In this document: piece after piece, positions 11,013-57,983 of the stretch
How the letters are laid out: each line of letters opens with the position of its first letter
Numbering within the stretch: position 1 is the first letter of the stretch
Assembly (NCBI GenBank): GCA_019694135.1
Contig: JAIBCM010000003.1
Span: 198,626-262,625, forward strand
Direction: 5' to 3'
DNA length: 64,000 nucleotides
From: Verrucomicrobiia bacterium
Lineage (GTDB): Bacteria > Verrucomicrobiota > Verrucomicrobiia > JADLBR01 > JAIBCM01
Translations under genes and position numbers: made by a program
Notes under the pieces: generated by a model
Seen by the model: the letters and a program-made list of their open reading frames with translations, nothing else
The model's database searches: none
Told to the model about the DNA's origin: nothing

Positions 11013-11944
11013 AAGCCCCATTGAGTGATAAGAAAAGTGGTAGGCTCTTCCGGAAAAATTTCGTCCGAAGCGTCCATTGCAGGCACCAAAACAAATTCGC
11101 CTTTTTGCAAAATTTCATTCCCCCATCGCGCTCTTCCTTCAACCACAAAAATCAATTGAAAAGTGCTCGGATCATTTTTCCATAAAAATGGCGTAGCGAA
11201 TTTTTGTTGTTTCAAAGAAAAAAAGGGTGTGATCAATGGATTTTTTTCAAGCAAAGCATGTGGCGACATTTCTTTTCCTCGCCAAATAATGGATTTTAGC
11301 GCTTCATTAGAGTGTAACGATCGCAATTTTCTCTGAGCATCAACCCGATCCCAATCATGCAACCGATAAGTCGTATCGGCATTTTGTTGCACTTCAACAA
11401 TCAAATTTCCTCCTCCAATCGCATGCAAACAACCGGCTGGGATAAATGCCACTTCGCCAGGTTGTGGATGATACCGATTCAATTGATCAATCACAGTATG
11501 ATTCCTAATTGCTTGAGTAAGTGAAGACTCAGTCACACCCTCTTTGACTCCTAAAAAAATTTCAGCATTGGGCTGTGCTTCCACAAAATACCAAGCTTCC
11601 GTTTTCGATTCACTATTCAATTCTTTCGCGATTTGCGCCGGAGGATGCACTTGCAAAGAAAGTTTATCTTGGGCATCTAAAATTTTAATTAAAAGAGGAA
11701 ATCGATCAACATCAGGAGCTTGAGTTCCAAAAATTTTTTCTCGTTCATGGATCCAAAGTTCATGCAATGTTTTCCCTTGATAAGGAGCACTTGTGACCAC
11801 ACTTTGCGCTTCTTTACGGTCCACTAACTCCCAAGATTCCCCAATAACAAGAGCAGGCGGTAAGGGTCGACCATATAAAGTCTCAATTTTTCTACCGCCC
11901 CACACCCTTTCCAAATAAATCGGTTGGAAACGGATAAGAGACAT
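11009..11944 (-). CDS. manA: Mannose-6-phosphate isomerase, class I
   Basis: Cupin-type PMI signature (LSLQVHPP, HAIGGGNLIVEVQQNADTTYRLHDWDR). Confidence 0.75.
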   Translation of the reverse strand: MSLIRFQPIYLERVWGGRKIETLYGRPLPPALVIGESWELVDRKEAQSVVTSAPYQGKTLHELWIHEREKIFGTQAPDVDRFPLLIKILDAQDKLSLQVHPPAQIAKELNSESKTEAWYFVEAQPNAEIFLGVKEGVTESSLTQAIRNHTVIDQLNRYHPQPGEVAFIPAGCLHAIGGGNLIVEVQQNADTTYRLHDWDRVDAQRKLRSLHSNEALKSIIWRGKEMSPHALLEKNPLITPFFSLKQQKFATPFLWKNDPSTFQLIFVVEGRARWGNEILQKGEFVLVPAMDASDEIFPEEPTTFLITQWGF

Positions 11945-11956
11945 GGCTCAAGTTAG

Positions 11957-12002
11957 AATTATGAATTATGAATTAAAAAGTTAATTTTCATAATTCATAA
12001 TT
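11957..12002. repeat. AT-rich inverted repeat (16-bp arms, about 14-nt spacer) between aminotransferase stop and manA start
   Basis: aattatgaattatgaa ... ttcataattcataatt read directly from sequence; possible terminator or operator. Confidence 0.5.
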
Positions 12003-12007
12003 TTAAT

Positions 12008-13174
12008 TTACTTCAAAGATTGGCAAAAGCGCGAGAATCGTTCCAAGCCCGATTCAATTTGTTCCAGGCTGGCCGCATAACTTAAGCGCACCGTGTTATC
12101 ATCCCCAAAAGCAATACCAGGCACAACGGCAACTTTATGTTTTTCCAAAAGTTTTTCAGCAAACTCTTGAGAACCTAAACGAAATTGAGAAATGTCTGGC
12201 AAGACATAAAAAGCGCCTTGCGGTTCTGTTACTTTAACACCTGAAATCCCGCGCAACAACTCCACCATACGTTGGCGCCGTGTATCAAATTCATCTCGCA
12301 TATGCGCCACACAATCTTGAGGACCACGCAAAGCGGCTAAAGCCCCTTTTTGAGCAAACGAAGTCGGATGCGAAGTGCTATGACTTTGTAAACTATCAAT
12401 CGCAGCGGCAATGTGTTCCGGAGCCGCAACATAACCCAAACGCCACCCTGTCATCGCATAAGCTTTGCTAAAGCCATTGACCGTAAGCGTCATATCATAA
12501 ATACCCTTACTGAAACTCGCAATACTCACCGCTTTAGCATCGCCATAAATTAATTTTTCGTAAATTTCGTCACTTAAAATATAAATTTCTTCTTCCAAAG
12601 CAATTTCTGCCAACTCCACTAACTCCGCCTCGGTGTAAACCGAACCGGTAGGATTACCTGGCGAGTTAAGGATCACCATCTTAGTGCCAGGAGAAATATT
12701 TTCACGAAACAATTCTGGCGTTAATTTATAACCATTTTCCGCTGTAGTAGGCACAATATAAGGTTCACCCCCAGCAATTCTCACCATTTCCGGATAACTC
12801 AACCAATAAGGCGCTGGAATTAAAACTTCGTCACCTTCATTCAACACTGCCATCATGGCATTGAAACAGGAATGTTTTGCCCCACAATTAACAATGATTT
12901 GCGAAGGTTTGTAATCCAAACCATTATCCTCTTTTAACTTATCGGCAATTGCCTGACGCAACTCTGGAATTCCAGAAGAAGGTGTATATTTAGTAAAACC
13001 CGCTTCCAAAGCGCCCATAGCAGCCGCTTTGATATGTTCAGGCGTATCAAAATCCGGTTCGCCTGCGGCAAAACTTAACACATCTTCTCCGGCAGCCTTT
13101 AATTGCTTAGCTTTCGCATCGATCGCTAAAGTCTGTGATGGAGTCACTTCTTGAATTCGTTTGGCAACTTGCAT
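12008..13174 (-). CDS. Class I pyridoxal-phosphate aminotransferase (aspartate aminotransferase-like)
   Basis: SFSKAYAMTGWRLGY-type PLP-lysine block, GEPDFDTP near N-terminus. ORF track extends to 13342, but Met 57 (MQVAKRIQEVTPSQT) matches typical AspAT N-termini, so start set at 13174. Confidence 0.8.
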   Translation of the reverse strand: MQVAKRIQEVTPSQTLAIDAKAKQLKAAGEDVLSFAAGEPDFDTPEHIKAAAMGALEAGFTKYTPSSGIPELRQAIADKLKEDNGLDYKPSQIIVNCGAKHSCFNAMMAVLNEGDEVLIPAPYWLSYPEMVRIAGGEPYIVPTTAENGYKLTPELFRENISPGTKMVILNSPGNPTGSVYTEAELVELAEIALEEEIYILSDEIYEKLIYGDAKAVSIASFSKGIYDMTLTVNGFSKAYAMTGWRLGYVAAPEHIAAAIDSLQSHSTSHPTSFAQKGALAALRGPQDCVAHMRDEFDTRRQRMVELLRGISGVKVTEPQGAFYVLPDISQFRLGSQEFAEKLLEKHKVAVVPGIAFGDDNTVRLSYAASLEQIESGLERFSRFCQSLK

Positions 13175-24412: not shown

Positions 24413-24630
24413 GATTAACGTAAAACTGCCACAACAGAAAAATGAGAAGCAAGCACCTTCGTCGATTGACGAATCGCTACAAAAAACGGAGTCTGTCTTA
24501 AAACTAAACTTGCCACAGATTTTTATTCTCTAGCATTTTCCTAGGAAATGTCGACTGAAATTACTAAGCAATTTTAAAATAAATTTACCCTTGTTTCTCA
24601 ACCGATTCCTATCAAACTATAATAACTAAC

Positions 24631-25047: not shown

Positions 25048-25159
25048 TATCATCCTCGGGCTTGCTTTACACCTGTCCGAAGTGTGCCCAAAAACTCTAA
25101 GTGTTATCTTGCAACTCCAACCACACCTTTTGTCATCCTCGGGCTTGACCCGGGTATCC
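25048..25159. repeat. Two direct copies of a 17-bp motif (tatcatcctcgggcttg / tgtcatcctcgggcttg) about 83 bp apart
   Basis: Read directly from sequence; second copy followed by cccggg-centred palindrome. Same core (TGTCATCC..) recurs at 56125..56196 and 57825..57893. Confidence 0.6.
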
Positions 25160-25239
25160 ATATTCATAAGACATAATTAGCATCAAAGCATTAAGATTAA
25201 ACACTGGCTTCCCAATAGAGTTTCAGCTTAGCTCTGTTT

Positions 25240-27345: not shown

Positions 27346-27664
27346 TGAATCTTTTTTCTTAACAAGCTCCGCTCAACGCTTTGCTCTGTACTATTTTCGC
27401 TTTCCGCGTGGCGAATGGAGAGTTGACCTGTTCACACCCTGTTCACATCAAAATAGACGGCTTGGAGTAACGAGGTAGTCAGGAAAAAGATGACAATTGT
27501 TGACAAAAAAGGTGTTTTCAATCGCTGAAAAAGTTGAAAAAAACATTTTCTTAAGGAGTTTAACCTAATCATCAATTCTTAAATGCTTCGCTTTTGCTTT
27601 ATATTGTCAATCTTTTTATTGTTTATTTCGATAACACGACTTATCTAATACATGACATAAAACT

Positions 27665-33410: not shown

Positions 33411-36400
33411 ATGATTACGCATCAACCTTACCATTTTACTCTGAACGGAAAAAAAATTCAAATTACTGATGAATCTCCGAATTTAACCCTTCTGCAATAT
33501 TTGCGACAAAATGGTCACATTGGCTCCAAAGAAGGTTGTGCTGAGGGTGATTGCGGCGCGTGCACAGTAGCGATTTTGGAACGCAATGCAAAAGGTGAAG
33601 CCTCTTATCGTGCGGTAAATAGTTGCATTATGCTCCTCCCCATGTTGGCGGGTCGCGAAGTGATCACTTCGGAAGGATTAGCCTGTCATGAAACCTTACA
33701 CCCGGTGCAGCAAGCGATGGTGGCCAATCACGGCTCGCAATGCGGTTATTGCACGCCGGGTTTTGTCATGTCACTCTTTGAAGCTTACTATCGCAAAGAT
33801 CTGAAGCAACAATGGCAAATTAACGATCAACTTTGCGGCAATTTATGTCGTTGCACGGGTTATCGACCTATTCGCGATGCTGCAGTGGAAGTATTAACAG
33901 GACGATTTAAAAATGGTGTGACTGATCCTTTTGCGGAAAGATTGGAATGCGTTAAAAATGAGTCACAATTAGCGCCCGGTCAATATGCGCCTAATTCGAA
34001 ACAATTTTTCTTACGTCCCAGTTCTCTCAAAGAGCTTTTGCAAATGATTCATGAGTTTCCCGATGCGCGACTTATCGCAGGCGGTACAGAACTGGGAGTC
34101 GATATTGCAAAAAATTTCAAATATCATCCTTACTTAATTTCCACAGAAGCCGTAGGGGAACTCAAAACGATTACCTCTACCAAACAAGAATGGCACATTG
34201 GCGCCGCAGCTACTCTCACCCAAATTGAGGAAACGTTACAAGGCGAAATTCCTTCCATTCAAAAAATGTTAACCGTATTTGCATCGCGCCAGATTCGCAA
34301 TCGCGCCACGCTTGGAGGAAACCTGGTAAACGCCTCCCCTATTGGCGATATGGCACCGGTTTTATTGACTTTAGACGCGCGTCTCATTGTTGCCTCGATG
34401 GATGGTGAAAGGGAAATTCCGATTGATCAATTTTTCCTGGCTTATCGCAAAACTGCTTTAGAACCTCGCGAAATTTTGAAATCCATTATTATTCCCAGAC
34501 AATTACCCGGGCGCGCCAATTCCTTCAAAGTCTCTAAGCGAATGGAATTGGATATTAGCACCGTGGCTGCTGCATTTCGTGTGGAATTGGATGATGCAGC
34601 ACAGGTTAAAACCGCGCGTCTTGCTTATGGGGGTGTCGCAGCAACACCTGTACGCGCTAAAAAAACAGAACAGTTTTTACTTAATAAAGCGTGGAATCGC
34701 GAAACATTGACTGAAGCAATGGCTATCATTAAAGATGAATTCACGCCTATCACCGATGCACGCGGCACTGCGGATTATCGTCGTGAACTCATCCCTAGTT
34801 TATTGGAAAAATTTTTCGATGAAGAAGAATTTCCCATCAATTATAATGCCATTACGCCGATTCCAGCTCCCGCAATTCGACCGATTCCACATGAAAGCGG
34901 TCATAAACATGTCGCTGGCACCGCAATTTATGTCGACGATGCAGCGGAACCTGCTGGTATGCTCGAAGTCTGGCCAGTTTGTTCGCCTTACGCCCATGCG
35001 CGAATTATTAAACGCGATGCTCATCTTGCAAAACAAATGCCTGATATTGTTGCCGTGCTCATGGCAGAAGATGTGCCAGGTGAAAATGATGTGGGCGCGG
35101 TGCGACACGATGAAATTTTGCTCGCTGACAAAGAAACGCTTTACCACGGTCATCTGGTCGCACTAGTAGTTGGAAAAACTCAGGAAGCCTGTCGCGCAGC
35201 AGCCGCAAAAGTTCAAGTAGAATACGAACCTTTGGAGCCTGTAATTGATTTAAAAAAAGCAATCGCTCAAAACATGTTTCATACTGATCCGCATGTGATG
35301 GAACGAGGCGACGCAAAGAAAGTATTAAACAATTCGCCCAACACTTTAGTTGGCGATTTTCATTTTGGCGGTCAGGAACATTTTTATCTCGAAACTCACG
35401 CGGCATGGGCCGAACCGGGCGAAGATGGAGAAATGTTTGTGAGTTCATCCACGCAACACCCGTCCGAAATTCAAATTGTTGTCGCTCGCGTTTTGGGTGT
35501 TTCACGACACAAAGTCGTCTGCCAAAGCCCGCGCATGGGCGGTGGATTTGGTGGAAAAGAAACGCAAGGCAACACTCCCGCTGCGCTTGCTGCTATTGCT
35601 GCCCGAAAAACTGGTAAACGCGTCCGAGTGCGTCTCAACCGAGAACAAGACATGATTCTTAGCGGAAAACGTCATCCGTTTTATGCGCAATTTAAAATCG
35701 GTTTTGATAACGAAGGCAAATTACTGGCTTTGCAGGCGGATCTTTTTGCCGATGGGGGTTGGGCTTTGGATTTATCGCAACCTGTGGCCGATCGTGCGCT
35801 TTTTCATTTAGACAACTCTTATTACCTTCCCAACGTTCGCGCTACCAGTCGTGTTGTGAAAACTCATATTGCTTCCAACACAGCATTCCGCGGTTTTGGC
35901 GGTCCTCAAGGCATGTTGGTAATTGAAGAAATTATGGATCGCATCGCGCGTCAATTAGGTTTACCTCCCGAAACGGTTCGCGAGCGAAATCTTTATCATG
36001 GCACGGGTGAAACGAACACAACGCACTACGGGCAAGTTATCGAAGATAATCGTTTGCAAAAAATTTGGCATGAACTCATTCGCTCTTCCGACTTTCATCA
36101 ACGTCGTAAACAATTAAAACAACGCAATGCAGAAAATGCCCGCTTTAAACGCGGCATTGCCATTACGCCGGTTAAATTTGGGATTTCTTTCACTTTGACA
36201 CACATGAATCAGGCTGGAGCTTTTGTAGTGATTTATGCCGATGGCAGTGTGCAACTCAACCACGGCGGCACAGAAATGGGGCAAGGGCTTCACACTAAGA
36301 TGATAGCGGTCGCTGTGAAAGAGCTGGGCGTCAAAGTCGAACAAATTCGTGTGATGAACACAAGCACCGATAAAGTGCCAAACACCTCTCCTACTGCTGC

Positions 36401-37220
36401 TTCCAGCGGCTCCGATCTCAATGGACAAGCCGTGAAAAATGCCTGTGTCATATTGCGCGAACGTTTGACACCCGTGGCAATGAAATTGTTGGAGGAAGAA
36501 TTTCAGCAAAAATCGTCCGGGATCATTTTTGAAGATGGCGAAGTTTATGACAAAAAATTTCCGCACAACAAAATTTCTTTTATCGCTCTGACCCAACGCG
36601 CTTATGTCGAACGCATCAGTTTATCAACCACGGGTTTCTTCGCGACTCCCGGTATTTATATGGACTGGAGCAAGGGCAAAGGAAATCCTTTCCTTTATTT
36701 TGCCTGCGGTGCAGCAGTGACGGAAGTAGAAATCGATAGTTACACGGGCATGAATCGCATTTTGCGAGTCGATATTTTGCATGATGTTGGAAGCTCTCTT
36801 AACGAAGCGGTGGATCGTGGCCAAATCGAAGGTGCGTTTGTTCAAGGCATGGGCTGGTTAACCTGCGAAGAATTAAAATGGGATGATAAAGGCAAGCTCC
36901 TTACTAAATGCGCTAGTACTTATGCAATTCCTGCCATTAGCAACGCACCGATTGAATTTAATGTGAAACTGCTGCCCGATGCGGCACAACACAACACCAT
37001 TCACGGCAGCAAAGCCGTGGGAGAACCACCTCTCATGCTTGCAATTTCTGTGCGTGAAGCGCTTCGTGACGCTATCGCAGCCTTTAGCGAGTCAGGCGAA
37101 CAAATTCCTCTTCCCTCACCCGCTACGAATGAAGCGATTTATTTAACTTTGAAAAATAGGCAAACTTCAAAAAGTAACAAATCTAACAAAGAAAAGAAAT
37201 CTCTTAAAGTCTCTGCTTAA
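33411..37220 (+). CDS. Xanthine dehydrogenase, single-chain (2Fe-2S + FAD + molybdopterin domains fused)
   Basis: N-terminal 2Fe-2S cysteines (CAEGDCGACTV; CGYCTPG), FAD-binding middle, molybdopterin domain with GGGFGGKE; 1269 aa; adjacent to guaD-like and xdhC genes. Confidence 0.85.
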   Translation: MITHQPYHFTLNGKKIQITDESPNLTLLQYLRQNGHIGSKEGCAEGDCGACTVAILERNAKGEASYRAVNSCIMLLPMLAGREVITSEGLACHETLHPVQQAMVANHGSQCGYCTPGFVMSLFEAYYRKDLKQQWQINDQLCGNLCRCTGYRPIRDAAVEVLTGRFKNGVTDPFAERLECVKNESQLAPGQYAPNSKQFFLRPSSLKELLQMIHEFPDARLIAGGTELGVDIAKNFKYHPYLISTEAVGELKTITSTKQEWHIGAAATLTQIEETLQGEIPSIQKMLTVFASRQIRNRATLGGNLVNASPIGDMAPVLLTLDARLIVASMDGEREIPIDQFFLAYRKTALEPREILKSIIIPRQLPGRANSFKVSKRMELDISTVAAAFRVELDDAAQVKTARLAYGGVAATPVRAKKTEQFLLNKAWNRETLTEAMAIIKDEFTPITDARGTADYRRELIPSLLEKFFDEEEFPINYNAITPIPAPAIRPIPHESGHKHVAGTAIYVDDAAEPAGMLEVWPVCSPYAHARIIKRDAHLAKQMPDIVAVLMAEDVPGENDVGAVRHDEILLADKETLYHGHLVALVVGKTQEACRAAAAKVQVEYEPLEPVIDLKKAIAQNMFHTDPHVMERGDAKKVLNNSPNTLVGDFHFGGQEHFYLETHAAWAEPGEDGEMFVSSSTQHPSEIQIVVARVLGVSRHKVVCQSPRMGGGFGGKETQGNTPAALAAIAARKTGKRVRVRLNREQDMILSGKRHPFYAQFKIGFDNEGKLLALQADLFADGGWALDLSQPVADRALFHLDNSYYLPNVRATSRVVKTHIASNTAFRGFGGPQGMLVIEEIMDRIARQLGLPPETVRERNLYHGTGETNTTHYGQVIEDNRLQKIWHELIRSSDFHQRRKQLKQRNAENARFKRGIAITPVKFGISFTLTHMNQAGAFVVIYADGSVQLNHGGTEMGQGLHTKMIAVAVKELGVKVEQIRVMNTSTDKVPNTSPTAASSGSDLNGQAVKNACVILRERLTPVAMKLLEEEFQQKSSGIIFEDGEVYDKKFPHNKISFIALTQRAYVERISLSTTGFFATPGIYMDWSKGKGNPFLYFACGAAVTEVEIDSYTGMNRILRVDILHDVGSSLNEAVDRGQIEGAFVQGMGWLTCEELKWDDKGKLLTKCASTYAIPAISNAPIEFNVKLLPDAAQHNTIHGSKAVGEPPLMLAISVREALRDAIAAFSESGEQIPLPSPATNEAIYLTLKNRQTSKSNKSNKEKKSLKVSA

Positions 37221-43337: not shown

Positions 43338-43814
43338 CTACTCAGGGAAAAATTTTTCAAATTTTACCGTGCCATCTGCCATAACAACGACATTTCCCGA
43401 AGAATATATCTGATTTTTTCCAACAAACAAATAAAGTTGATCTCGATCCTCTGCATAAAAAAAATCTTTAGGACAAACTCCACCATAAAAAAAATCTGGT
43501 AGATCACCTGCTTGATGTTTGGGCTGAGTCGGATCATACCAAGCCTCATCAGGAACACCATAAGCTTTAAGCTGCCTTTGCCACCATTTCATATCACTGG
43601 ACAATTGTTCCGTAGATTTTGCAGTTTCTGGATTCATATCATCAAACATTTTTTGCGCTCCAGAATAAAGTTGTTGAGCACGAGAGAGACACTTGGTTGT
43701 ATTAATGTGCTTACGAAACGTGAAAAATGTGGGTATTGAAATCCCTATCAACAATGCGATTAGAGACATTGTAATTAAAAGTTCTAAAAGAGTAAAAGCC
43801 TTTTGCGATTTCAA
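43338..43814 (-). CDS. Prepilin-type N-terminal cleavage/methylation domain protein (pseudopilin-like)
   Basis: N-terminus KAFTLLELLITMSLIALLIGI matches prepilin leader plus hydrophobic helix. Confidence 0.7.
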   Translation of the reverse strand: MKSQKAFTLLELLITMSLIALLIGISIPTFFTFRKHINTTKCLSRAQQLYSGAQKMFDDMNPETAKSTEQLSSDMKWWQRQLKAYGVPDEAWYDPTQPKHQAGDLPDFFYGGVCPKDFFYAEDRDQLYLFVGKNQIYSSGNVVVMADGTVKFEKFFPE

Positions 43815-43825
43815 ACCTTAAGACA

Positions 43826-44491
43826 TTAACGATAAACTTTCGTTGTGGGAATACCAAAAAAATTCGGAACAGTAGAGATTTTTTTTGCCTCAACTATAAC
43901 ACCTGGGACTGTTTTAGAACTTCTTATAATAGTAACCCCAGTTTGCCTATCAAAATCCACACGCATATTATTGTTATCAGAGGTGTACTCAACGTTACCT
44001 CTCATTATTTTTCCAGGCGCTTTTTTCTGATAAAACATTATTCCTTCAACTAATAATTCAGCTGAAAATCTTTGAATAAATGGAATTTCTACGGGGCCAA
44101 ATGAAAAGGTAATATTCCTATTTTTAGAATCACCTGGTATAGAAATAATATTAGTCCCAGAACCTAGGGTGCTTCCAAAAGGTAAAACCAAAACGGATCC
44201 TCGCGTATTAACTTTTCTTCCCGCAACAAATAAAAACCCTTGCAAAACTCGACCTTCATGAAATCCCAGGGGGCTAAAATTTAAAGTAAAAGTAAAAAGT
44301 CCTCCATTCAAAACAAAAGTAAAACCTTCTCCAGTAGTATCATTAAAAGTAATAGGAATACGTTGTGGTCCAATCATACATTGATAAGTTCCAACAATTT
44401 TAATATCTCGTTCAGCTTGGGCTTTAAGCTGAGTACTGTTAACAAACACTAATGTTAAAACAACAAGTAAAATTATGATTTTTTGTTTCAT
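43826..44491 (-). CDS. Hypothetical secreted protein
   Basis: Signal peptide (MKQKIIILLVVLTLVFVNSTQLKA); no recognised motifs; sits between secretin and prepilin-like genes. Confidence 0.45.
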   Translation of the reverse strand: MKQKIIILLVVLTLVFVNSTQLKAQAERDIKIVGTYQCMIGPQRIPITFNDTTGEGFTFVLNGGLFTFTLNFSPLGFHEGRVLQGFLFVAGRKVNTRGSVLVLPFGSTLGSGTNIISIPGDSKNRNITFSFGPVEIPFIQRFSAELLVEGIMFYQKKAPGKIMRGNVEYTSDNNNMRVDFDRQTGVTIIRSSKTVPGVIVEAKKISTVPNFFGIPTTKVYR

Positions 44492-44495
44492 AGAC

Positions 44496-46892
44496 TTAGC
44501 GGCTTGCAGTTTTTTGTGAAGGTATGACTAATGGTTCAGGTGGATTGACTAATTCTCCTGTTGGCGTAATTAATTTAGGGGTCACAAAAATCACCAAATT
44601 CTTTTTAATCGATTGCTCTACATCTGAACGAAAAAATCGACCTAAAAGAGGAATATCGCCAAGAATGGGAATCTTATCTTTAATTTTTTGAACATCTTCA
44701 CGTAATAAACCGCCTAAAATAACGGTGGACCCATCTTTAACCTGAACACTTGTCTCAATACGTCGAGAATTAAATACTGGCATATTAATAACGTTTTCAG
44801 TTAAAACAAAGGTTTGATCCCCATCAGCTACGGTCATAGGTGTACCATAATTAATAAATCCTTCAAAATCTTCGACCAAAGGAACAAGATTAAGATCAAT
44901 CGTTTGATTATCAGGACCAACCTCCGGGGTGACGTTTAAAATAACACCGACTTCTCTATCAGTAAAATTAGAAGGTTGTGCCGGAGTAATAACAGGCGGC
45001 GGTTGACTAATAAGATTATTAACGTCATTTGCTCCACCACTTGATGTGGTAGGAGGCAATTCAGGAGCATCATAAGTATCAGCATAAGAAAATCGACGAA
45101 CAATTTTTATGGTAGCTTGTTCACCACTACGAGCCACCACTTTCGGCGCTGACAAAAGATCGACTGATTTTTTCTGAGCTAAAGTTCGGATTAAAACATC
45201 AATATTATATTTGGCAATACCCACAGCAAAATTAAAGCTATTGGGTATAGGTCTCGCATCAATACCGTTATTTTGAGAAAGCAAAGCATCGACTGAATTA
45301 GGTTTGATATGAGCCGAACTTCGTAATCCATCAAAATGGTTTAATCCATCCATATCAAGAGGGGAAAAATTACCTGATGGACGAGTATAATTTCCCTCTT
45401 TCACTACGTTCATTGCAATCGAAAGTTCATCAAAATCGGTTTGATTAAGTTCGATAAACTTGGCCTCAATTTCAACCTGAGCAGGAATATCGGTTGGAGA
45501 ACCAACTAAGGCATCAATGAGCTCCAAATTAGCCGGAGAATTTCGAACAGTCAATTTACTGGACGCTGAAGAATAAGAAGCGCTAGCGCCTTCAGGAAAA
45601 GTAACACCTCGTGATTCTAAAACTTTTCGAATATCGGTTTCTCGCTCAAATTGCACTTTTTCCATAAGAGAACGACTAAAAGATCTTCGTGTGCGAGAAC
45701 CCCCTTGTTGTTCTCCACCCGTTTCAACATTAAAAAAGTCTGGTTTAACACGATACTCTTTGGTCAATAACTGATCGGTTGGCGCTGTTAAAGGAAGAAT
45801 ACTCACCGAAAACTCATCCATTTGATATTTTAAATTGGCTAAACGCGTCGCATAACGAATGACTTCCTCTAAAGGAACACTCTGAAGATTTAATGTTACC
45901 TCAGATCCCATTGAGTCAGGAGTTAAACGCGAAACAAAATTAATACCCTTTCTTTCGGGATCGAGTTCTTTACTTTTTACATTGAGAAAATCAATAACAT
46001 CTAAAATGCTAGCTCGATCAAAAGCTACTTGAGGCAGAATAATCGTTTTTAATTTTCTGCTAAGATTTTCTACATTGGAACGTGTTAAAGGGGCATTGGC
46101 AAAAATTCCGGAATCCGAAATCACATCTTTGGGAATGGGCATTTCCCATTTTTCAGTAACTTCAGTCATGCCTTGAAAACGAGCTACTTCTTGAGCTTTT
46201 TTAGCATAACGCAACTTATGATCTAACACCTTATCTAATCGCTTACGTGCCGTGCTATTGAAAGGATCGATCGTCAAAATTTGCTGATATTTTTTCTCTG
46301 CCTCATCAAATTGAGCCGTGTCCAATAAATCATCACCCTCTTGCAACAAAGTATTCACATCTGCCACATCTTTTAAATAACGCGGAGTAATAGCAGGATT
46401 ATCACGTTCAATCATGGGCTTACCCTCTTGATCTAAAGCAATACCCATCGCAGCATACAAACTCGCTCGCTCTGCTTGAATGCGAGAATCTTTAGGCGCA
46501 AAAGATAACGCTTCATCAGCATTCGCTCTAGCTTCATCCAAAAGGTTGGCTTTTAAATTTTCATGAGCTAATTGTATCAAGGCAACGGCTGCCCCATCAT
46601 AAGCCTTATTTTGCAACGGCGCGGTCGCCGGAGAAGGAGCCGGTAAAAGAGCTACAATCGCACGATATTTTTCTAAAGCTTCTTTATAACCTTGCGCTTC
46701 TAACAAAGCATTTCCCTCTCTGAGTAAAGCAGTTCCTCGAATCACAGCTTGTTGACGCTTTAATACTGCAGTTTGAGAAGCTTTTTGTGCGCTGATATAA
46801 TCGGACTGATCAACATTCCCATTCCCTAGCAAAGCCAAAGGTGCTATACCTAATAAAAAGAAACAAAAAATTTTATAATAACAAAGTTTCAT
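44496..46892 (-). CDS. Secretin-family outer-membrane channel protein (PilQ/GspD-like), copy 2
   Basis: C-terminal secretin signature (VILGGLLREDVQKIKDKIPILGDIPLLGRFFRS); signal peptide; TPR-like N-terminal region. Confidence 0.8.
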   Translation of the reverse strand: MKLCYYKIFCFFLLGIAPLALLGNGNVDQSDYISAQKASQTAVLKRQQAVIRGTALLREGNALLEAQGYKEALEKYRAIVALLPAPSPATAPLQNKAYDGAAVALIQLAHENLKANLLDEARANADEALSFAPKDSRIQAERASLYAAMGIALDQEGKPMIERDNPAITPRYLKDVADVNTLLQEGDDLLDTAQFDEAEKKYQQILTIDPFNSTARKRLDKVLDHKLRYAKKAQEVARFQGMTEVTEKWEMPIPKDVISDSGIFANAPLTRSNVENLSRKLKTIILPQVAFDRASILDVIDFLNVKSKELDPERKGINFVSRLTPDSMGSEVTLNLQSVPLEEVIRYATRLANLKYQMDEFSVSILPLTAPTDQLLTKEYRVKPDFFNVETGGEQQGGSRTRRSFSRSLMEKVQFERETDIRKVLESRGVTFPEGASASYSSASSKLTVRNSPANLELIDALVGSPTDIPAQVEIEAKFIELNQTDFDELSIAMNVVKEGNYTRPSGNFSPLDMDGLNHFDGLRSSAHIKPNSVDALLSQNNGIDARPIPNSFNFAVGIAKYNIDVLIRTLAQKKSVDLLSAPKVVARSGEQATIKIVRRFSYADTYDAPELPPTTSSGGANDVNNLISQPPPVITPAQPSNFTDREVGVILNVTPEVGPDNQTIDLNLVPLVEDFEGFINYGTPMTVADGDQTFVLTENVINMPVFNSRRIETSVQVKDGSTVILGGLLREDVQKIKDKIPILGDIPLLGRFFRSDVEQSIKKNLVIFVTPKLITPTGELVNPPEPLVIPSQKTASR

Positions 46893-49454
46893 TTATTTCA
46901 TCCTTCCCTGAGGCTCATTTACTATCCTCAACTCCTGAGGCTCTTGAGTCGAATCCCAACGAGGAACCTCAGCAAAAGTAGGATTATTATCAAAGCTTTG
47001 TGTATCTTCAAAATTACGTTTATTAAAAAGTTCTCCATCAGATCGAATCAAATTACAGGTAACAAAAATCAACAGATTCTTTTTAATGCTTTGATCAATT
47101 TTCGAACGGAAAAGACGCCCTAATAATGGTAAATCGCCCAGTAAAGGAATTTTATCATCAACTTTTTGAATGTCTTCCCGGATTAATCCACCTAATAAAA
47201 CTGTTTGACCATCTTCAATACTCAATCGCGTTTTAACCTCTCGATAATTAAAAACAGGTGTGTTAATAATATTATCAGCGACTTTAACTGCTTGAGACGT
47301 TCCCAAGTCTAAAGCATTAATAGGATTTCCATAATTAATGAATCCTTCAAAATCGACAACTCTAGGTGTTAACTGAAGATCAATCGTTTGATTATCAGGA
47401 TAAAGTTGAGGATTGACCGTCAAAATGACGCCGATCTGCTCATTTTTAAAAGTCGAAGGAGTTGAAGGAGTCACAGCACGGTAGCCATTTCCACTCGGCA
47501 ACTGTGAAATAGACGCATCAATTTGAGGTGGCTCAATAGCTTGAGGATCAGGATAAAAAAAGTCGCGAGCAATACGAATTTCAGCATCTTGAGAAGGTTT
47601 AGTGACTACTTTGGGCACAGCTAAAAGATCAGCACCCGTTTTTTGTGAAAGCGCATAAACTAACAATTCAAACTTATACTTACTTAATGAAATCGCACTT
47701 TGAAACGCTGTTCCTAAAGGCCCTGCAAAAGCGGTAGCGGCTCCTGCTAATAAAGCATCAAAAGTATTAGCATTAATAGCATTTCCTCCCACTGCTAAAT
47801 CTACCGGTAATCCCAAAACCTCCGTTGAAGCCGAAGGAGCTGAAGTTCTTAAACCAGGAGTATCAGTTGGAGCCGATTGAGAACGTCCTCTTCGATTAAT
47901 ATTCCAACGGAAAGAAAGCTCATCCAAATCAGTCTGATTCACCTCCATAAAACGAGTTTCGATTTGAACCTGAGGAACTTCCTGACTTTCCGAACTAATC
48001 ACACTTTCAATCAAAGCTAAATTATCCAATGTATTTCGAACTACGAGCAAACTTCCATTCGACAAATAATTAGCCGAGGAGCCGGGAGGAAATTGAACAC
48101 CATAAGTTTCTAATTTTGTCTTCACTTCTTCACGAGCAATATTGACTGATTCACTTAACGTGCCACCGTCCTTGCTCTCAATTTTCGCGCCAATAAAACC
48201 CGCTGGCACTTGGAACGTGCGAGTAAATAACGCCTCAATATTTTCTGAAGCCGGCGCCACTAAAACTGCATATTCCTCCACTTTATAGATCAAATCCGCT
48301 TGTTTTGCGATAAGATCCAAAACCGCGGCCAAAGGCAAATTTTCTAAGTTCAAAGTAATGCGACGCGCATCAATCGTTTCAATCGAAACCTGCTCGCCAG
48401 CGCTCGGTTGACTTTCTGCAGCATCTGAAACAGTTGCAATCGTGGTCTTCAAAACAAAATTCAAACCTTGCCCAGTCGGATCTAACTCTTTGGATTTAGC
48501 CTGTAAAAAAGTCACCGCTTCTTCCACCGATGCTTCGTCAAAATTAATTTTATCAATAATAATATTGTTTAACTTTTCCTCAATACGTGCCGTATTCGAC
48601 AAACTCGCAGCAGAAACACTTCTCTCTTCGCGAGGCTTCAAAATATTACGATTCACCGGATTACTCCAAGCTTTCGTCACTTCATAAAGCATTTCTTTAC
48701 GACTATTCTCTTTAGCATCTTTGGCATATTTCAAACGCAGTTGAGAAACTCGCTTCAAACCGTCCTGTGCAGCCTTATTATAAGGATCAATCGCCAAAAC
48801 CTTTTTAAAGTTTTCTTCTGACTTAATATATTGCCCAGTTTCGCGCTGTTTTTCGCCTAAATCCAAAAGCCGTTTCACTTCTCCAACAGCTTGCACAAAC
48901 TCAGGTGTCACTGCAGAATTGGGCTCAATTACCAATCCCTCACCCGATTGTTTTTGAATCGTCTTAGCAAGTTTCTGCAACTCCTTATCTTCAGGAGAAT
49001 AAGCTAACGCCTCAGAAACATAGCCTCCTGCTGTCTGAAATTTTCGCGTTTCCAAAGCCTCCTCAGCCAAACGCATATTAGCCATCGTCAACCCCTCAGC
49101 CGCAGCCTGATAAAGATCGAAAGTATTCGTTGTCATCGGCAAATTCTGCAAAACAAAACGATAACGATCCGCTGCAGAAACATATTCTTTAGCGGAATAA
49201 AGCTGTTCGCCTTCCACTAAAGCTTTTTTGCTGCCAGTAAAAAGTTTTTGTCGTCGCGCTGTTTCATTTTGCAAAGCGCGATCAACTGCTGCATTTTCAG
49301 CATAAACCATGTTTTGCGTCAAAAAAATGGAACCTAAGAAAAAACCAAGACAAAAGAAACGATTGCTACCCTTCAATCTCATAAAGTAAGTCGATAGTGA
49401 ATAGAGCCTTTCTTGAATGCAAGAATTAATTTCCCTTATTTTTAAAATATTCAA
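46893..49454 (-). CDS. Secretin-family outer-membrane channel protein (PilQ/GspD-like), copy 1
   Basis: C-terminal secretin signature (VLLGGLIREDIQKVDDKIPLLGDLPLLGRLFRS); paralogous throughout to copy 2; start possibly the internal Met before the hydrophobic segment. Confidence 0.8.
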   Translation of the reverse strand: MNILKIREINSCIQERLYSLSTYFMRLKGSNRFFCLGFFLGSIFLTQNMVYAENAAVDRALQNETARRQKLFTGSKKALVEGEQLYSAKEYVSAADRYRFVLQNLPMTTNTFDLYQAAAEGLTMANMRLAEEALETRKFQTAGGYVSEALAYSPEDKELQKLAKTIQKQSGEGLVIEPNSAVTPEFVQAVGEVKRLLDLGEKQRETGQYIKSEENFKKVLAIDPYNKAAQDGLKRVSQLRLKYAKDAKENSRKEMLYEVTKAWSNPVNRNILKPREERSVSAASLSNTARIEEKLNNIIIDKINFDEASVEEAVTFLQAKSKELDPTGQGLNFVLKTTIATVSDAAESQPSAGEQVSIETIDARRITLNLENLPLAAVLDLIAKQADLIYKVEEYAVLVAPASENIEALFTRTFQVPAGFIGAKIESKDGGTLSESVNIAREEVKTKLETYGVQFPPGSSANYLSNGSLLVVRNTLDNLALIESVISSESQEVPQVQIETRFMEVNQTDLDELSFRWNINRRGRSQSAPTDTPGLRTSAPSASTEVLGLPVDLAVGGNAINANTFDALLAGAATAFAGPLGTAFQSAISLSKYKFELLVYALSQKTGADLLAVPKVVTKPSQDAEIRIARDFFYPDPQAIEPPQIDASISQLPSGNGYRAVTPSTPSTFKNEQIGVILTVNPQLYPDNQTIDLQLTPRVVDFEGFINYGNPINALDLGTSQAVKVADNIINTPVFNYREVKTRLSIEDGQTVLLGGLIREDIQKVDDKIPLLGDLPLLGRLFRSKIDQSIKKNLLIFVTCNLIRSDGELFNKRNFEDTQSFDNNPTFAEVPRWDSTQEPQELRIVNEPQGRMK

Positions 49455-49460
49455 AATTAA

Positions 49461-50426
49461 TTATTGACTTGGAATCTGTAGCATTTCCTTTTCCGTGCCA
49501 TCTTCCGATAAAGCCATAATCTCCGCACCGGTTTCACTCAAATTTTTCACGCGATAATTTATTCCGCGAAACGTAATCTCTTGAGCTTTTTCTACAGGAT
49601 AATTTTTATTTTCTAATAAATCTACCAACGTTCCCGTTAAAATGGGCGCATCCGACACCTGTTTCATTACCAACGTTAAACGTTCGCCTGTCACCTCATT
49701 CACCACGTCCAACTCCGATTCATCATAAGGCAACATCACTCCTTGCATTTTAGGATTTTCTCGTTCCCCTTTTTTCTCGCGATATTCTTCCACTCGCCAA
49801 TCTTCAAACTTATCACCTTTTTTCACAGAATTGGAACGATGTCTTCGATCGCGCGGATGGGAAAGCTTGACTTGGAAAAATGTCTGTCCTCCCACTTCGT
49901 TGACCCCAGTAAACTCCAGCGAATACGGTTTCGCCTCAAAATTCGTCAAACGCAATTTCGTTGTAAAAGGGGGATGCGATTCCGCCTTCAAGGGATCCGT
50001 CTTGCCCAAATACTCATCCTTATTCGTAAAACCATCTTTATCGGGATCCTGATCTGCGACGGTTGGATCACTCAGACTAAAACCATACTGTTCTTTCCAC
50101 AATGGCGCAATCCCATCAACCCCCGCTTCATCAGGTCGATACAATTTCAACTTACGCTCATCCGCCAACCATTCCAACTTTCGAGAAATAAACAAACGAT
50201 GCCCATTCTCAGCAGCCTTCCACTCCTCATTTTGATCCAACTCTTTTCCCAAATCTTGATATTGATCCAAATCCTCACGGACCTTTGCATTGCCACCCAA
50301 CACTTCCGCCACCGCTTGGGGAGGAGCTGTAGAAAAAGACAACGCTTTAAAAATGGCGACGCCCAATAAAATTAACAACACGCTAAACAACAACGTCCAT
50401 TCAATATTTTTTTTTGCCCAATTCAT
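49461..50426 (-). CDS. Hypothetical membrane-anchored protein (possible PilP-like component)
   Basis: N-terminal TM helix; position between pilO-like gene and secretin; assignment by context only. Confidence 0.4.
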   Translation of the reverse strand: MNWAKKNIEWTLLFSVLLILLGVAIFKALSFSTAPPQAVAEVLGGNAKVREDLDQYQDLGKELDQNEEWKAAENGHRLFISRKLEWLADERKLKLYRPDEAGVDGIAPLWKEQYGFSLSDPTVADQDPDKDGFTNKDEYLGKTDPLKAESHPPFTTKLRLTNFEAKPYSLEFTGVNEVGGQTFFQVKLSHPRDRRHRSNSVKKGDKFEDWRVEEYREKKGERENPKMQGVMLPYDESELDVVNEVTGERLTLVMKQVSDAPILTGTLVDLLENKNYPVEKAQEITFRGINYRVKNLSETGAEIMALSEDGTEKEMLQIPSQ

Positions 50427-51394
50427 TTTTTAACACTCACATTTTCATCACTCTGCCAATTAATATAATCAATTCTCATCGTAATGCGAATCGTCTCCTC
50501 ACCTAAAATCAAATTAGCCGCCACACTTTTAGGACCTTCCGAAGTTGCGCCCTTAGTCTTCAAATCCTCTACTGTCGGCGGTTCCCCTCGTTCATTAATA
50601 ACCTCCAAAGAACGCACTATCCAAAAAGGCTGAGCGCCATTTTCCTGGCCTTCCCCACCTCTTTCATTCAAAGCATCCACAATTTTTCTCAAACTCGTAT
50701 CCGTTCCGACAAATTGAAAAACAAATGGAAGAGTTCGATAAAAAAGCCCTTCGCGATCCAATGACATAGCGGGCAACAACTCTCCCAACTCCCCCTCACT
50801 TCCACGCACAGGTTGTCGAGTTGCTGCGGCCGCTCCAGAACTTTGGGTTAGCAAATCTTCCACAGGCAAACGCGACACACTCTTTAACTCATTAATTCCC
50901 GATTCAAATAACAACTGCGTCAACCGCTCAATAATTCTCAACTCTTGCGTTAAAAACACCGTCGCCTCCGGCGCTGGAATACTGGTTAAATAGCGACCAA
51001 ACCCAAACGAAAAATTTTCTGGTAATGTAACAGGATTTCTTGCCTTTTGCGCCATCTCCACCAAACGATCGCGCGTATTGCGAAATTCCGTTTGAAAATC
51101 GATCGGATTCAAAGCCTCGCCTTGAATTTGTCCCTGCTTCAATTCAGCAATAGCCGGCTGTAAATAACTTTCCAACTGCTGCGCCTTCTCCTGATAAACT
51201 TTCGTATTGGCCTCACTCGGAAACACCGATTGCCCACGATAACGCGATAACGTCATCGCCTGCGACTCCAAATCCGTATTCAACGAACTCACCCGTTGCC
51301 CTTCATGCCACCAAAAATAACCGCCCACTGCACTAATCACTATCGCCACCAACAGCGCCTGAGAAGTTTCACGATTTTTCTTAAACCAATCCAT
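50423..51394 (-). CDS. PilO-like pilus assembly protein (putative)
   Basis: N-terminal TM helix followed by coiled-coil-like region; follows pilM-pilN fusion; 4-nt overlap with downstream gene. Confidence 0.45.
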   Translation of the reverse strand: MDWFKKNRETSQALLVAIVISAVGGYFWWHEGQRVSSLNTDLESQAMTLSRYRGQSVFPSEANTKVYQEKAQQLESYLQPAIAELKQGQIQGEALNPIDFQTEFRNTRDRLVEMAQKARNPVTLPENFSFGFGRYLTSIPAPEATVFLTQELRIIERLTQLLFESGINELKSVSRLPVEDLLTQSSGAAAATRQPVRGSEGELGELLPAMSLDREGLFYRTLPFVFQFVGTDTSLRKIVDALNERGGEGQENGAQPFWIVRSLEVINERGEPPTVEDLKTKGATSEGPKSVAANLILGEETIRITMRIDYINWQSDENVSVKK

Positions 51395-51423
51395 ATTACT
51401 TTTTTCTCATTTCTCTATTTTTC

Positions 51424-53205: not shown

Positions 53206-53252
53206 CGTTTCTCCAAGACTATTTTCAAAACCATTTCAAAAAAATGATGCCA

Positions 53253-54032: not shown

Positions 54033-54208
54033 ACCTACCTATTTGCCAAAAAAAGAGTATAGGTCAAACTTTATATTAGTGATTATTAACTCGTGACCAG
54101 TGACAAGTAATCGGCTATTAATCACCAACTAATCTAGATAGTGTTTAGTATCGTCACGAAATAGCTAAAAGGTAAACGTATTAAGACTAGATCTCCAGGT
54201 CACCGCCT

Positions 54209-55981: not shown

Positions 55982-56124
55982 TACATCCCCACTCTAAAAG
56001 AGATTTAACCAAAAATTCAAACAGGAAATTTGAATAATAACACTTCTTTAATGATTTAGCTTTAGCTATGACGCACAAAGCTGGGATGTTTGATTTAGGT
56101 AAAGTCGCCCAATTCAATCATATC

Positions 56125-56196
56125 ATATCATCCTCGAACTCGATCCGAGAATCCACATTCCCACCCCATTGTCATTCCCGACTCGATCGAGAATCC
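56125..56196. repeat. Two tandem copies of about 29-bp unit (atcatcctcgaactcgatccgagaatcca / gtcattcccgactcgatcgagaatcca)
   Basis: Read directly; contains 10-bp palindrome ctcgatcgag; shares core with repeats at 25048 and 57825. Confidence 0.55.
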
Positions 56197-56354
56197 ATTC
56201 TTTATTTCTCTGGATCCCCGGGTCACCAAAGCGGGATGAGGAGTGTAGTTGACATTTTAGGATAGCGCTTAGCGCTCTTTGGGACTTCAGACAATTATAT
56301 TAAAGCTTAACCGGGGCTCCCATTGTTCAGCAGTTACCTATTCCCGACAATCTT

Positions 56355-57746
56355 TTACCAAGGACTAGGCATCCCCCAACCCTTAGTCTGAGCAGCTTCA
56401 CCAGCAATCCTAGCAGGTTCTTGAAAAGCTTGGCGGAGTTTATCGCCAGCTGGCCTGACCAAATGTTCATTGGCTAGTTCAGCTCCTTTACCAACAGCCG
56501 GGGCTACCATCTCTCCCACCTTACCACCCGCTGCTATGCCTGTTTTTACTACTGGTACAACCACAGGAGCAACTACATGCTCTGCTACAGGCAACACCAC
56601 GTGGTCAACTGCTGCATCTACTGCCGGGTTAATGGCATAACAAAGTCCTACAGTCTCCACACAATCAGCTACATCAATCACATCAAGAGCGGCCTCTCCT
56701 AATTCAGCCCCCCTCTTTAACGCTTCTCTAGCCACCACACCCGCTCCCAAAGGATGCTCTCGACCAGACGGCTCTGGCTCTTCAGAAACCTGACTCACGT
56801 AAGCCACACCGCTTACCACAACAATCTTTTCAGATTTTGCCAGATAATTCCTAGATCTTGATTCGAGACTATTCAACAACTTATAGAAACATGCATCCGC
56901 CTCACGATAATCGTCCCAAGCTTGACGAAGTCTATCCGTATTTGGCTTTATTTGGGTATTGCCTAACTCTTCTGATAGAACACGTGAAAAAATTTCCAAT
57001 TTCTCATTCTGATTAATAGTAACCTGTAAAAATTCGTCAAAATACTCAGCCAAAGCTTTAGCTTCAGCAGCAAGTTCACGACTAGCCTTACTAGGATTTA
57101 ATGCTGCAATCTCATTAGCATGATGCAAAGCTTCTTTAGATATCTTATTCATTTCTTTCATAGAATGAATGAAACCTTTATTATCAGATATTATTCCTCC
57201 TACATCACTCAAAATATCGTTCCAAAAATAAATTTCTTCAGATGAATGAATTTTTTTTGGGGCTTTTGGGGCAATCGAAGATGATGGATCACCAAAATAA
57301 TTATCCATTCTTTTTCTGATGCTCGCCAAAGCCTTAATGTAGGAAAAATCAAAACCCCTAACTCCTCTATTAAATTCATGTCCAGCCTGAGCTAAACGAG
57401 CAGCGTGATAATAAGGCTTATCAACATGGCTCGCAAGCCTAGCGAATCGTGCCTTTTTATAAGCTTCTTGAGCCTCTTGAATTCCATAAAGATCTTTATA
57501 TGCTTCATCACAAGCATGATTAGCTTCTAAGAAAGCTTTTTCATTTTCTGGAGTAGAATCGGCTCGAAATCTTTGTTTCGCCAGAGTCATCTGGTCATGC
57601 GCTTCGTATGCTAGCTTATGAGCCTCTTCCAATTCCTCTGCAGCAAAGGGTGGGATCTCTATCTCTCTAGGCTTCGAACCGCTAATCCTATCCCAAGCAT
57701 CACCAAGTTTTCTTCTCCAACCACTTTTGCTACCACCTTTACCCAT
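56355..57746 (-). CDS. Hypothetical Ala-rich protein, compositionally atypical
   Basis: 463 aa, no recognised catalytic motifs; N-terminus MGKGGSKSGWRRK; codon usage looks different from neighbours by eye (frequent CTAG); flanked by repeat loci. Confidence 0.5.
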   Translation of the reverse strand: MGKGGSKSGWRRKLGDAWDRISGSKPREIEIPPFAAEELEEAHKLAYEAHDQMTLAKQRFRADSTPENEKAFLEANHACDEAYKDLYGIQEAQEAYKKARFARLASHVDKPYYHAARLAQAGHEFNRGVRGFDFSYIKALASIRKRMDNYFGDPSSSIAPKAPKKIHSSEEIYFWNDILSDVGGIISDNKGFIHSMKEMNKISKEALHHANEIAALNPSKASRELAAEAKALAEYFDEFLQVTINQNEKLEIFSRVLSEELGNTQIKPNTDRLRQAWDDYREADACFYKLLNSLESRSRNYLAKSEKIVVVSGVAYVSQVSEEPEPSGREHPLGAGVVAREALKRGAELGEAALDVIDVADCVETVGLCYAINPAVDAAVDHVVLPVAEHVVAPVVVPVVKTGIAAGGKVGEMVAPAVGKGAELANEHLVRPAGDKLRQAFQEPARIAGEAAQTKGWGMPSPW

Positions 57747-57824
57747 AATAATTTCCTTAAATTTCCTCTTTTTAAGAATTAAACATAGAAAAAAATTTTG
57801 TCAAATACCCCCTCGCTACCAAAC

Positions 57825-57893
57825 TTGTCATCCGTCATCCTCACCCTTACAGAAAATGCCAAATGCCAACCTTGTCATCCTCGTCCGTCAGCC
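57825..57893. repeat. Two copies of cttgtcatcc(g/t)... motif, period about 46 bp
   Basis: cttgtcatccgtcatcctcaccc and cttgtcatcctcgtccgtcagcc, with aaatgccaaatgccaa between; same core as 25048 and 56125 loci. Confidence 0.55.
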
Positions 57894-57983
57894 GATGGAT
57901 TTAGCAGCACTCAAAAGTTTATATCTTCTCACTACGTCAAATGACGTATTTCCAAACCGGAAAAAATATATAATAAAGAAATA

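Follow-up and report, generated by a model that had tools for sequence, protein, structure and literature searches.

Decayed TGTC-tagged hairpin repeats of the CGTC-tagged REP superfamily at lineage-specific insertions in a Verrucomicrobiia genome

The stretch of DNA analysed here, hereafter the window, comprises 64,000 nucleotides, with 42% G+C, of a Verrucomicrobiia genome. Its 57 genes are all ordinary chromosomal genes, among them leuBCD, phoH, recO, ndk, rplT, infC, thrS, rnr, truB, ribF, prmC, prfA and recG, together with a xanthine dehydrogenase gene and a pilus/secretin cluster. None of the 57 encodes a transposase or recombinase, and the window likewise holds no RAYT gene (Y1 HUH, PF01797). 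Three of its intergenic spacers carry copies of a short repeat: locus 1 lies upstream of the RNase R gene (rnr), and loci 2 and 3 flank a 463-aa gene on both sides (56355-57746, minus strand). An independent Logan assembly (L001) matches locus 1 base for base (100% identity over 1,646 bp), so the repeats at this site are not an assembly artefact.

An earlier note on this DNA had described a core, TGTCATCC, recurring as paired copies in these three spacers, and this observation is borne out: the core is found there above chance, and its matches are nearly all intergenic. The exact core occurs five times in the 64-kb window against 1.28 expected, a count reached by none of 100 dinucleotide-preserving shuffles. 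Three of these occurrences are at the repeat loci (25131, 57826 and 57873) and two lie within genes (5643 and, on the minus strand, 33172). One-mismatch variants account for TATCATCC at 25048 and 56126 and for TGTCATTC at 56170; one TCATCCTCG match falls inside the phoH-like gene. The longer core TCATYCYCG is present six times where 2.0 are expected, again without a shuffle of 100 reaching the count, and five of the six matches are intergenic in a window whose intergenic DNA makes up about 9%. As a greedy ORF map places ~91.5% of the window within genes, our own binomial estimate for this distribution is P ~3e-5. A pattern for the whole unit, TCATYCYCG-N-CTYGA-N-CGRGRATC, has two window matches against 0.00 expected. 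The spacing between paired copies had been given as 45 to 83 bp, in agreement with the 83, 44 and 47 nt that we measure from start to start. A generic repeat finder run on the window does not show the family, the units being too short and too divergent for it.

The core turns out to be only the 5' end of a repeat of ~30 nt. From its 5' end, a full unit reads as an unpaired tag (TGTC), the first arm of an 8-9 bp stem whose opening pairs are A-T/T-A, a CTYGA loop of 5 nt, the second, complementary arm, and CCA as an unpaired tail. By this anatomy the window holds three intact units, one degraded inverted unit and three 5' half-unit or degenerate remnants, as well as a second module of ~55 nt (Table 1); all seven units and remnants are intergenic and fall at the three loci. 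The inverted unit U5 had escaped the first reading of the sequence, as had the repetitive nature of the DNA that separates and adjoins the units of loci 1 and 2. That reading had reported palindromes near some copies, and had missed that each good unit is itself a palindrome.

Table 1. Repeat units, associated repeat DNA and the segment missing from two relatives, in window coordinates
Feature	Position	Strand	Description
U1	25048..25065	+	5' half-unit: TATC tag, 5' arm ATCCTCGGG, loop CTTG(C), without 3' arm
Internal module, copy A	25074..25130	+	second repeat, ~55 nt, starts TGTCCGAAGT; unit-associated
U2	25131..25160	+	intact: TGTC tag, 9-bp stem ATCCTCGGG/CCCGGGTAT, loop CTTGA, tail CCA
Segment of ~1.9 kb	56032..57924		missing in L192 and L193; holds locus 2 repeats, 463-aa gene and locus 3 repeats
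U3	56126..56155	+	intact: TATC-ATCCTCGAA-CTCGA-TCCGAGAAT-CCA, 9-bp stem
U4	56170..56197	+	intact: TGTC tag, 8-bp stem ATTCCCGA/TCGAGAAT, loop CTCGA, tail CCA; left half of HH dimer
Dimer spacer	56198..56210		TTCTTTATTTCTC, 13 nt; conserved in L002, whose dimer has the reverse complement of GAGAGGAATAAAGAA
U5	56211..56241	-	degraded inverted unit: CCTC tag, stem reduced to ATCCC/GGGAT, enlarged loop, tail CCA
Internal module, copy B	56242..56293	-	aligned with copy A; matches module pattern
U6	57826..57842	+	two overlapping 5' fragments, TGTCATCC and GTCATCCTC; without 3' arm; does not fold
U7	57873..57903	+	degenerate: TGTC tag, 5' arm ATCCTCG, 9-nt loop, bulged 3' arm CGA(T)GGAT, without CCA tail

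The units share an architecture and differ in detail. The tag is TGTC in U2, U4, U6 and U7, CCTC in U5 and TATC in U1 and U3, and it is CGTC in none of the window copies. The stems of U2, U3 and U4 all start AT...AT and contain one or two non-Watson-Crick pairs each: U2 has one G.T pair and one mismatch, while the two C.A mismatches of U3 are G.U pairs on the minus strand, where U3 forms a 10-bp hairpin in an RNA fold. U2 has the loop CTTGA, U3 and U4 have CTCGA, and a CCA tail follows U2, U3, U4 and U5. A covariance model scores U2 at 47.5 bits and U3 at 37.6 bits, both being part of its training set, and recovers U4, which lies outside that set, at E = 0.0012; U5 is found at E = 0.1. The model misses U1, which does not fold and differs from U2 by three mismatches over a 19-mer, and U7 is returned at a non-significant E = 7.6. 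For U1, U6 and U7 the assignment is made from the 5' end only, which in U7 is a shared stretch of 11 nt. The tag strand is the plus strand in six of the seven units and remnants; these represent only three independent loci, too few for a claim of orientation bias. Over positions 1-64000 the GC skew stays negative (cumulative -5.75), and the plus strand has the composition of a lagging strand.

Repetition extends beyond the units into their flanks, and the loci are thus short mosaics of units, half-units and the ~55-nt module. U4 and U5 form a tags-outside (HH) dimer of ~72 nt at 56170-56241, and U3 and U4 a head-to-tail pair. A counterpart of this region lies in L002, a sister metagenome-assembled genome (MAG) with ~90% nucleotide identity to the window, which carries two units in 18 kb. 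These make up a well-formed tags-outside dimer (5872-5942) at the position of the window's locus 1. U4 is near-identical to the L002 unit at 5915-5942 (minus strand), and the degraded U5, the right half of the window dimer, aligns with the intact L002 unit at 5872-5901. Taken as a whole, window 56169-56293, read on the reverse strand, and L002 5815-5943 are 78.6% identical. Copy A of the internal module aligns both with copy B and with L002 5815-5871, and a pattern for this module has two window matches against 0.00 expected; no convincing conserved structure was found in it (three predicted pairs, -0.8 kcal/mol). Metagenome scans for the lineage-specific dimer spacer and for the internal module returned no match in either case. 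Units occur singly, as tags-outside dimers with a 13-nt spacer and as 5' half-units. The numbers are small: one such dimer in the window and one in L002, one head-to-tail pair, and half-units that precede full units.

Comparison with relatives places each of these mosaics in DNA that the relatives lack or arrange differently. The spacer between a 134-aa gene and rnr measures 204 bp in the window and 320 bp in L002, but only 15 and 11 bp in L003 and L005, respectively, and locus 1 is thus an insertion of 190-300 bp upstream of rnr. The window and L002 differ at this locus by ~117 bp, and the difference is bounded by a direct repeat, CTTGNCCCGGG, which corresponds to the loop and 3' arm of a unit. 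Two alternative events would account for it, namely deletion between half-units and insertion into a unit. The RNase R encoded downstream is 97% identical to a Verrucomicrobiia MAG protein; it and the permease assign the window to Verrucomicrobia, and a Coxiella/Legionella origin, which the G+C content and similar palindromes known there had at first suggested, was rejected on these grounds and on the match of the 463-aa protein given below. Other differences from the relatives are found nearby. The rnr-truB spacer, A+T-rich and ~320 bp long in the window (27346-27664), holds no CGTC-type unit; its counterparts in L002 and L003 measure 33 and 9 nt. Between thrS and the 134-aa gene, L002 has a PhdYeFM-type antitoxin gene with a 94-aa partner (4761-5283), a pair missing from the window (compared at 24413-24630). 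The xanthine-dehydrogenase-like gene is a single 1,269-aa ORF in the window (33411-37220) and is split into frames of 607, 183 and 227 aa in L002 (13947-17766), which could reflect a pseudogene or assembly errors.

Loci 2 and 3 bound a single segment. In L192 and L193 a permease gene directly adjoins the 416/427-aa gene, with spacers of 108-120 bp, and the ~1.9-kb segment that separates the two in the window is missing; the junction sequences were compared, and the nucleotide identity of L192 to the window is ~78-83%. L192 carries a homologue of the 463-aa gene at 11870-13129, 45% identical across the 249 C-terminal aa. It lies on the other side of the permease gene, a position occupied in the window by just 176 bp (54033-54208). 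The 463-aa gene has been relocated or replaced, and its new position is flanked by repeats. Its product has no assigned function; a 100% identical protein is present in a Verrucomicrobiae MAG (locus tags K1X66), and the only other match in a large protein database is a 36% paralogue in the same MAG. The covariance model detected no unit in ~76 kb of loci from more distant relatives, syntenic regions included. All three loci thus coincide with lineage-specific insertions or gene relocation, and the check on whether copies mark synteny breakpoints, which had been proposed when the core was first described, is positive at three of three. The position of locus 3, between divergent genes, is not the one that REPs prefer. 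Altogether, these comparisons show that the mosaic DNA entered three intergenic sites after the split from the nearest sampled relatives and was later reshaped by deletion or insertion between repeated half-units. Mobility is read here from presence and absence between relatives at only three loci in 64 kb, and neither a target duplication nor an active copy was seen.

The unit is not confined to this lineage. A scan of species-representative genomes (596 Gb) with the pattern TCATYCYCG-N(1-4)-CTYGA-N(1-3)-CGRGRATC found at least 120 loci, against ~6 expected by chance (our estimate, with equal base frequencies). The higher groups among the matches listed include Alpha-, Beta- and Gammaproteobacteria and Campylobacterota. 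Matches were found in many Alphaproteobacteria and in Rhodoferax, Polaromonas, Francisella, Legionellaceae, Sulfuricurvum, Sulfurovum and Desulfovibrionaceae, and further ones in Bacteroidales, Treponema, Dehalococcoidia, several Patescibacteria, Nitrospirales, Zixibacteria, Calditrichota, Bdellovibrionales and Fibrobacter. Inverted doublets 15-25 nt apart are numerous among the matches listed, and U2 shares its entire 5' arm and loop with the commonest Agrobacterium/Rhizobium unit among them, TCATCCTCGGGCTTGA. At stem positions that the pattern leaves free, the two arms are exact reverse complements in 145 of the 149 matches listed, with 11 different complementary combinations. Among 49 distinct units with 9-bp stems drawn from the matches listed, 98.9% of cells pair, against 88.5% after shuffling and 21-55% when the partner is slid, and 47 cells are changed on both sides against 13 in shuffles. 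Such complementarity and covariation indicate that the hairpin is under constraint, with tag, loop and tail fixed. The two bases before TCAT are CG in 89 and TG in 50 of the matches listed (139 of 149), and the two bases after ATC, in the tail, are CA in 93 of 149, the first tail C having been fixed by the pattern itself. The loop is CTTGA in 128 and CTCGA in 21 of the 149 matches listed, within a pattern that required CTYGA. IMG/VR viral contigs carry units as well, on 64 stretches. At least 11 units lie on a single 35.8-kb contig with a viral classification, IMGVR_UViG_3300037246_003066 (L131, L142, L150, L161 and L175); many stretches in the viral collection are prophage calls in isolate genomes, and host DNA may be included.

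These features identify the repeat as a decaying member, with a TGTC-tag variant, of a known superfamily, the CGTC-tagged REPs, as judged against the published text description of the superfamily. Members have the tag CGTC, often TGTC or CCTC, stems of 8-9 bp with A-T in positions 1-2, loops of 4-5 nt in few sequence types, and an unpaired tail that is mostly CCA (Di Nocera, De Gregorio and Rocco 2013, BMC Genomics 14:522, PMC3733652). They are present in tens to thousands of copies, mainly extragenic, which is a criterion of membership; HH dimers predominate, heterodimers are common in families 2-3 and head-to-tail pairs are negligible; no transposase is associated with them, and no RAYT gene flanked by units was found in the 2013 survey (PMC3733652). 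The same survey reported CGTC repeats in Proteobacteria, Chlorobi, Bacteroidetes, Spirochaetes and Thermotogae, and for Verrucomicrobia only GTAG repeats, in Opitutus terrae (PMC3733652). CGTC-tagged REPs in Verrucomicrobia are accordingly new relative to that listing, and we found no later literature on CGTC repeats or on REPs in Verrucomicrobia; a literature text search for the unit sequence gave no match. To our knowledge the superfamily is an "orphan": we know of no enzyme that mobilises it and of no demonstration of its excision or transposition.

The window units share with CGTC-tagged REPs the tag variants TGTC and CCTC, the 8-9 bp stem starting A-T/T-A, the 5-nt loop, the CCA tail, tags-outside dimers including 8-bp/9-bp heterodimers, the extragenic location and, in the DNA examined, the absence of a linked transposase. 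They differ in their verrucomicrobial host, in lacking the canonical CGTC tag, in low copy density in the window, in the degraded state of most copies, in the one head-to-tail pair and in the extra ~55-nt module. By geometry, U4 (8-bp stem, 5-nt loop) appears CGTC-2-like, and U2 and U3 (9-bp stem, 5-nt loop) CGTC-3/4-like. The suggestion in the earlier note of a REP/MITE-like element thus holds in its REP part, given the tag, stem, loop and tail anatomy, the extragenic position, the lineage-specific insertions and the covarying stems across bacteria.

Several better-known systems are close to this one. The dRS3 element of Neisseria has the consensus ATTCCC-N8-GGGAAT. In the 2013 classification dRS3 repeats are CGTC-1, a family with an 8-bp stem and a 4-nt loop, and the Rickettsia elements RPE-6 and RPE-4 are CGTC-1 and CGTC-4 (PMC3733652). 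As with dRS3 and the NIMEs, units are interleaved here with other short repeats in intergenic mosaics at rearrangement junctions; in contrast, window loops have 5 nt (CTYGA), and Neisseria carries hundreds of copies in large clusters. Neisseria repeats are, moreover, targets of IS110-type recombinases and filamentous prophages, and no such partner was seen in the window. With the ~55-nt module, the units here are embedded in short mosaics in the manner of BIMEs and NIMEs. Rickettsia RPEs are often found in frame inside genes, whereas the recognisable window units all lie between genes. GTAG REPs, REPINs and BIMEs, which RAYT transposases (Y1 HUH) mobilise, have in common with our units a short unpaired tag, an imperfect hairpin, inverted doublets and an extragenic location, and probably also the logic of single-stranded hairpin DNA recognised by its structure and a few fixed bases. 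The difference lies in the tags, which are TGTC, TATC or CCTC in the window rather than GTAG or GTGG, with no GTAG beside the hairpins, and in the lack of a RAYT gene there. Three further candidates were rejected: integron attC sites, as the units have no GTTRRRY/RYYYAAC cores; CRISPR repeats, as the arrays have no unique spacers; and dif/Xer sites, to which the units bear no resemblance.

Folding of each unit had also been proposed as a check. As single-stranded DNA, U2 folds at -4.9 kcal/mol (z = -1.9) and is the sole window unit to fold better than its shuffles; U3 and U4 reach -2.4 kcal/mol and the remnants ~0. The L002 dimer folds at -16 kcal/mol (z = -2.6), and by comparison the weak folding of the window copies indicates that they are decaying. 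No sigma-70-like promoter overlaps any unit, and no intrinsic terminator (a G+C-rich hairpin with a T run) was called on the units on either strand. At E <= 1, Rfam gave a single, meaningless miRNA match (E = 0.99) for loci 1-3 and none for unit-rich loci from other genomes.

The pairing defects raise the question of whether the units owe their maintenance mainly to a role in RNA, as UTR hairpins with a protective or terminating effect on transcripts, and are not primarily selfish DNA. Many REPs have been proposed to act as RNA (PMC3733652). The window's U2, U3 and U4 contain four transition-type mispairs, and all of them are G.U in the sense of the transcribed strand of the adjacent genes (plus for U2, minus for U3 and U4), and across genomes T.G pairs exceed C.A pairs in tag-strand orientation by 13 to 4 among the matches listed. 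This bias hints at an RNA-level constraint or at a transcription-linked mutation bias, on small counts; C-to-T deamination of the non-template strand would give an equal bias. The hairpins, however, are not followed by a T run, no terminator-like site was called on them, the copies are decaying and weakly folded, and relatives manage without units. A role in RNA would in any case be compatible with a selfish origin. We therefore regard maintenance chiefly as RNA elements as unlikely.

Less likely still is that the dimer represents a classical MITE, a deletion derivative of an insertion sequence moved by a DDE transposase through TGTCAT...ATGACA terminal inverted repeats. The tags-outside dimers of the window and L002, with inverted ends, a length of ~72 nt and a position in inserted DNA, have the appearance expected of such an element. 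Neither is accompanied by a target-site duplication, single units and half-units occur as often as dimers, and the two halves of a dimer are each self-complementary hairpins with different stems. The covariation of stems across genomes fits recognition of a hairpin rather than of terminal repeats. No related insertion sequence or transposase was seen in the window or near units elsewhere (at least 120 loci): no transposase recurs within 8 kb of units at these loci, and all-against-all clustering of 3,507 ORFs from them yielded, as families recurring beside units, only common housekeeping types, namely ABC transporter, GGDEF, short-chain dehydrogenase and glutathione S-transferase.

Regulator binding sites had been the alternative offered alongside a mobile element, and in this form the paired direct copies would be operators of a transcription factor controlling rnr and the permease, 463-aa and 416-aa genes. 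Copies are paired 44-83 bp apart upstream of genes, and locus 3 lies between divergent genes, which speaks for such control. Close relatives, however, keep the genes with the spacers of 11-15 bp or 108-120 bp given above and without the sites, the copies differ from one another by mismatches and truncations and are decaying, and units are found in many phyla beside unrelated genes with stems that covary, whereas an operator would conserve bases rather than pairing. With no sigma-70-like promoter overlapping the units either, this alternative is unsupported and we consider it highly improbable. The variable orientation of copies relative to genes had been raised as an argument against a simple promoter, and that argument is sound. 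Chance recurrence of a short motif, to which the core matches inside genes might point (two exact TGTCATCC and the one in the phoH-like gene), can be dismissed with near certainty, as no shuffle reaches the observed counts and the matches extend to 30-nt units and to mosaics of more than 120 nt with 78.6% identity between loci.

We are thus left with a model, which we hold to be very probable as a whole, in which the window carries mostly decayed copies of a CGTC-tagged REP in its TGTC variant, brought in by lineage-specific insertion and descended from a repeat that presumably spread by means of its hairpin. By analogy with GTAG REPs and RAYT and with IS200/IS605 elements, a putative trans-acting enzyme working on single-stranded DNA would take as its substrate the hairpin together with the constant tag, loop and tail. 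Such activity would belong to the past of this genome rather than its present: spread has presumably largely stopped, and the copies would accumulate mismatches as a result. Transcribed units would fold into RNA hairpins, which would lie in the 5' leader of rnr and in the region that is at once 3' of the 463-aa gene and 5' of the permease gene, and these hairpins could have a modest effect on mRNA stability.

A bolder proposal is that the CGTC/TGTC hairpin repeat is the substrate of one widespread putative trans-acting enzyme and not a set of lineage-bound relics. It is suggested by the constancy of the tag, the CTTGA loop and the CCA tail and by covarying stems from Patescibacteria and Dehalococcoidia to Proteobacteria, Bacteroidota and Verrucomicrobia, by tandem arrays of 5' half-units before full units with no arrays of 3' halves (among at least 120 loci), and by the difference between L002 and the window bounded by CTTGNCCCGGG inside a unit. 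We find this proposal doubtful. If it were true, the half-unit asymmetry and the CTTGNCCCGGG-bounded difference would be footprints of directional, loop-targeted insertion or copying.

The asymmetry itself is a concrete footprint that needs explanation. Among the at least 120 loci there are 38 5' half-units without a 3' arm, 16 of which stand in tandem arrays just before a full unit, and 21 3' half-units, none of them in arrays. The same order, with the 5' half first, is seen in the window, where U1 precedes U2 and U6 precedes U7. These arrays may record the way in which the repeats arise. Arrays in which tag, 5' arm and loop are followed by 4-13 unrelated bases occur in L009, L016, L029, L042, L057, L060 and L106. 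A different kind of amplification is seen in L091 (2590-3050), where a tags-outside heterodimer of a CTTGA-loop unit and a TTTC-loop unit, with a constant spacer of ~40 nt, is present in four tandem copies with a period of 124 bp, dimer and flank having been amplified as a block.

For annotation, these results mean that the three spacers are best treated as repeat-bearing insertions and not as regulatory regions conserved with relatives, and that they mark changes in gene order, including the relocation of one gene. The presence of CGTC-tagged REPs in Verrucomicrobia and in many phyla beyond the five of 2013 provides a wider comparative base, which could serve a search for the enzyme by phylogenetic co-occurrence. 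Elsewhere in the window, a type IV pilus-like cluster (43338-54032) includes pilM and two tandem paralogous secretin genes (44496-46892 and 46893-49454) that share a 173-nt stretch with 72% identity. Genes of this cluster have L192 orthologues that match the Pfam families of Amuc_1100 and Amuc_1102, as in the pilus-associated locus of Akkermansia.
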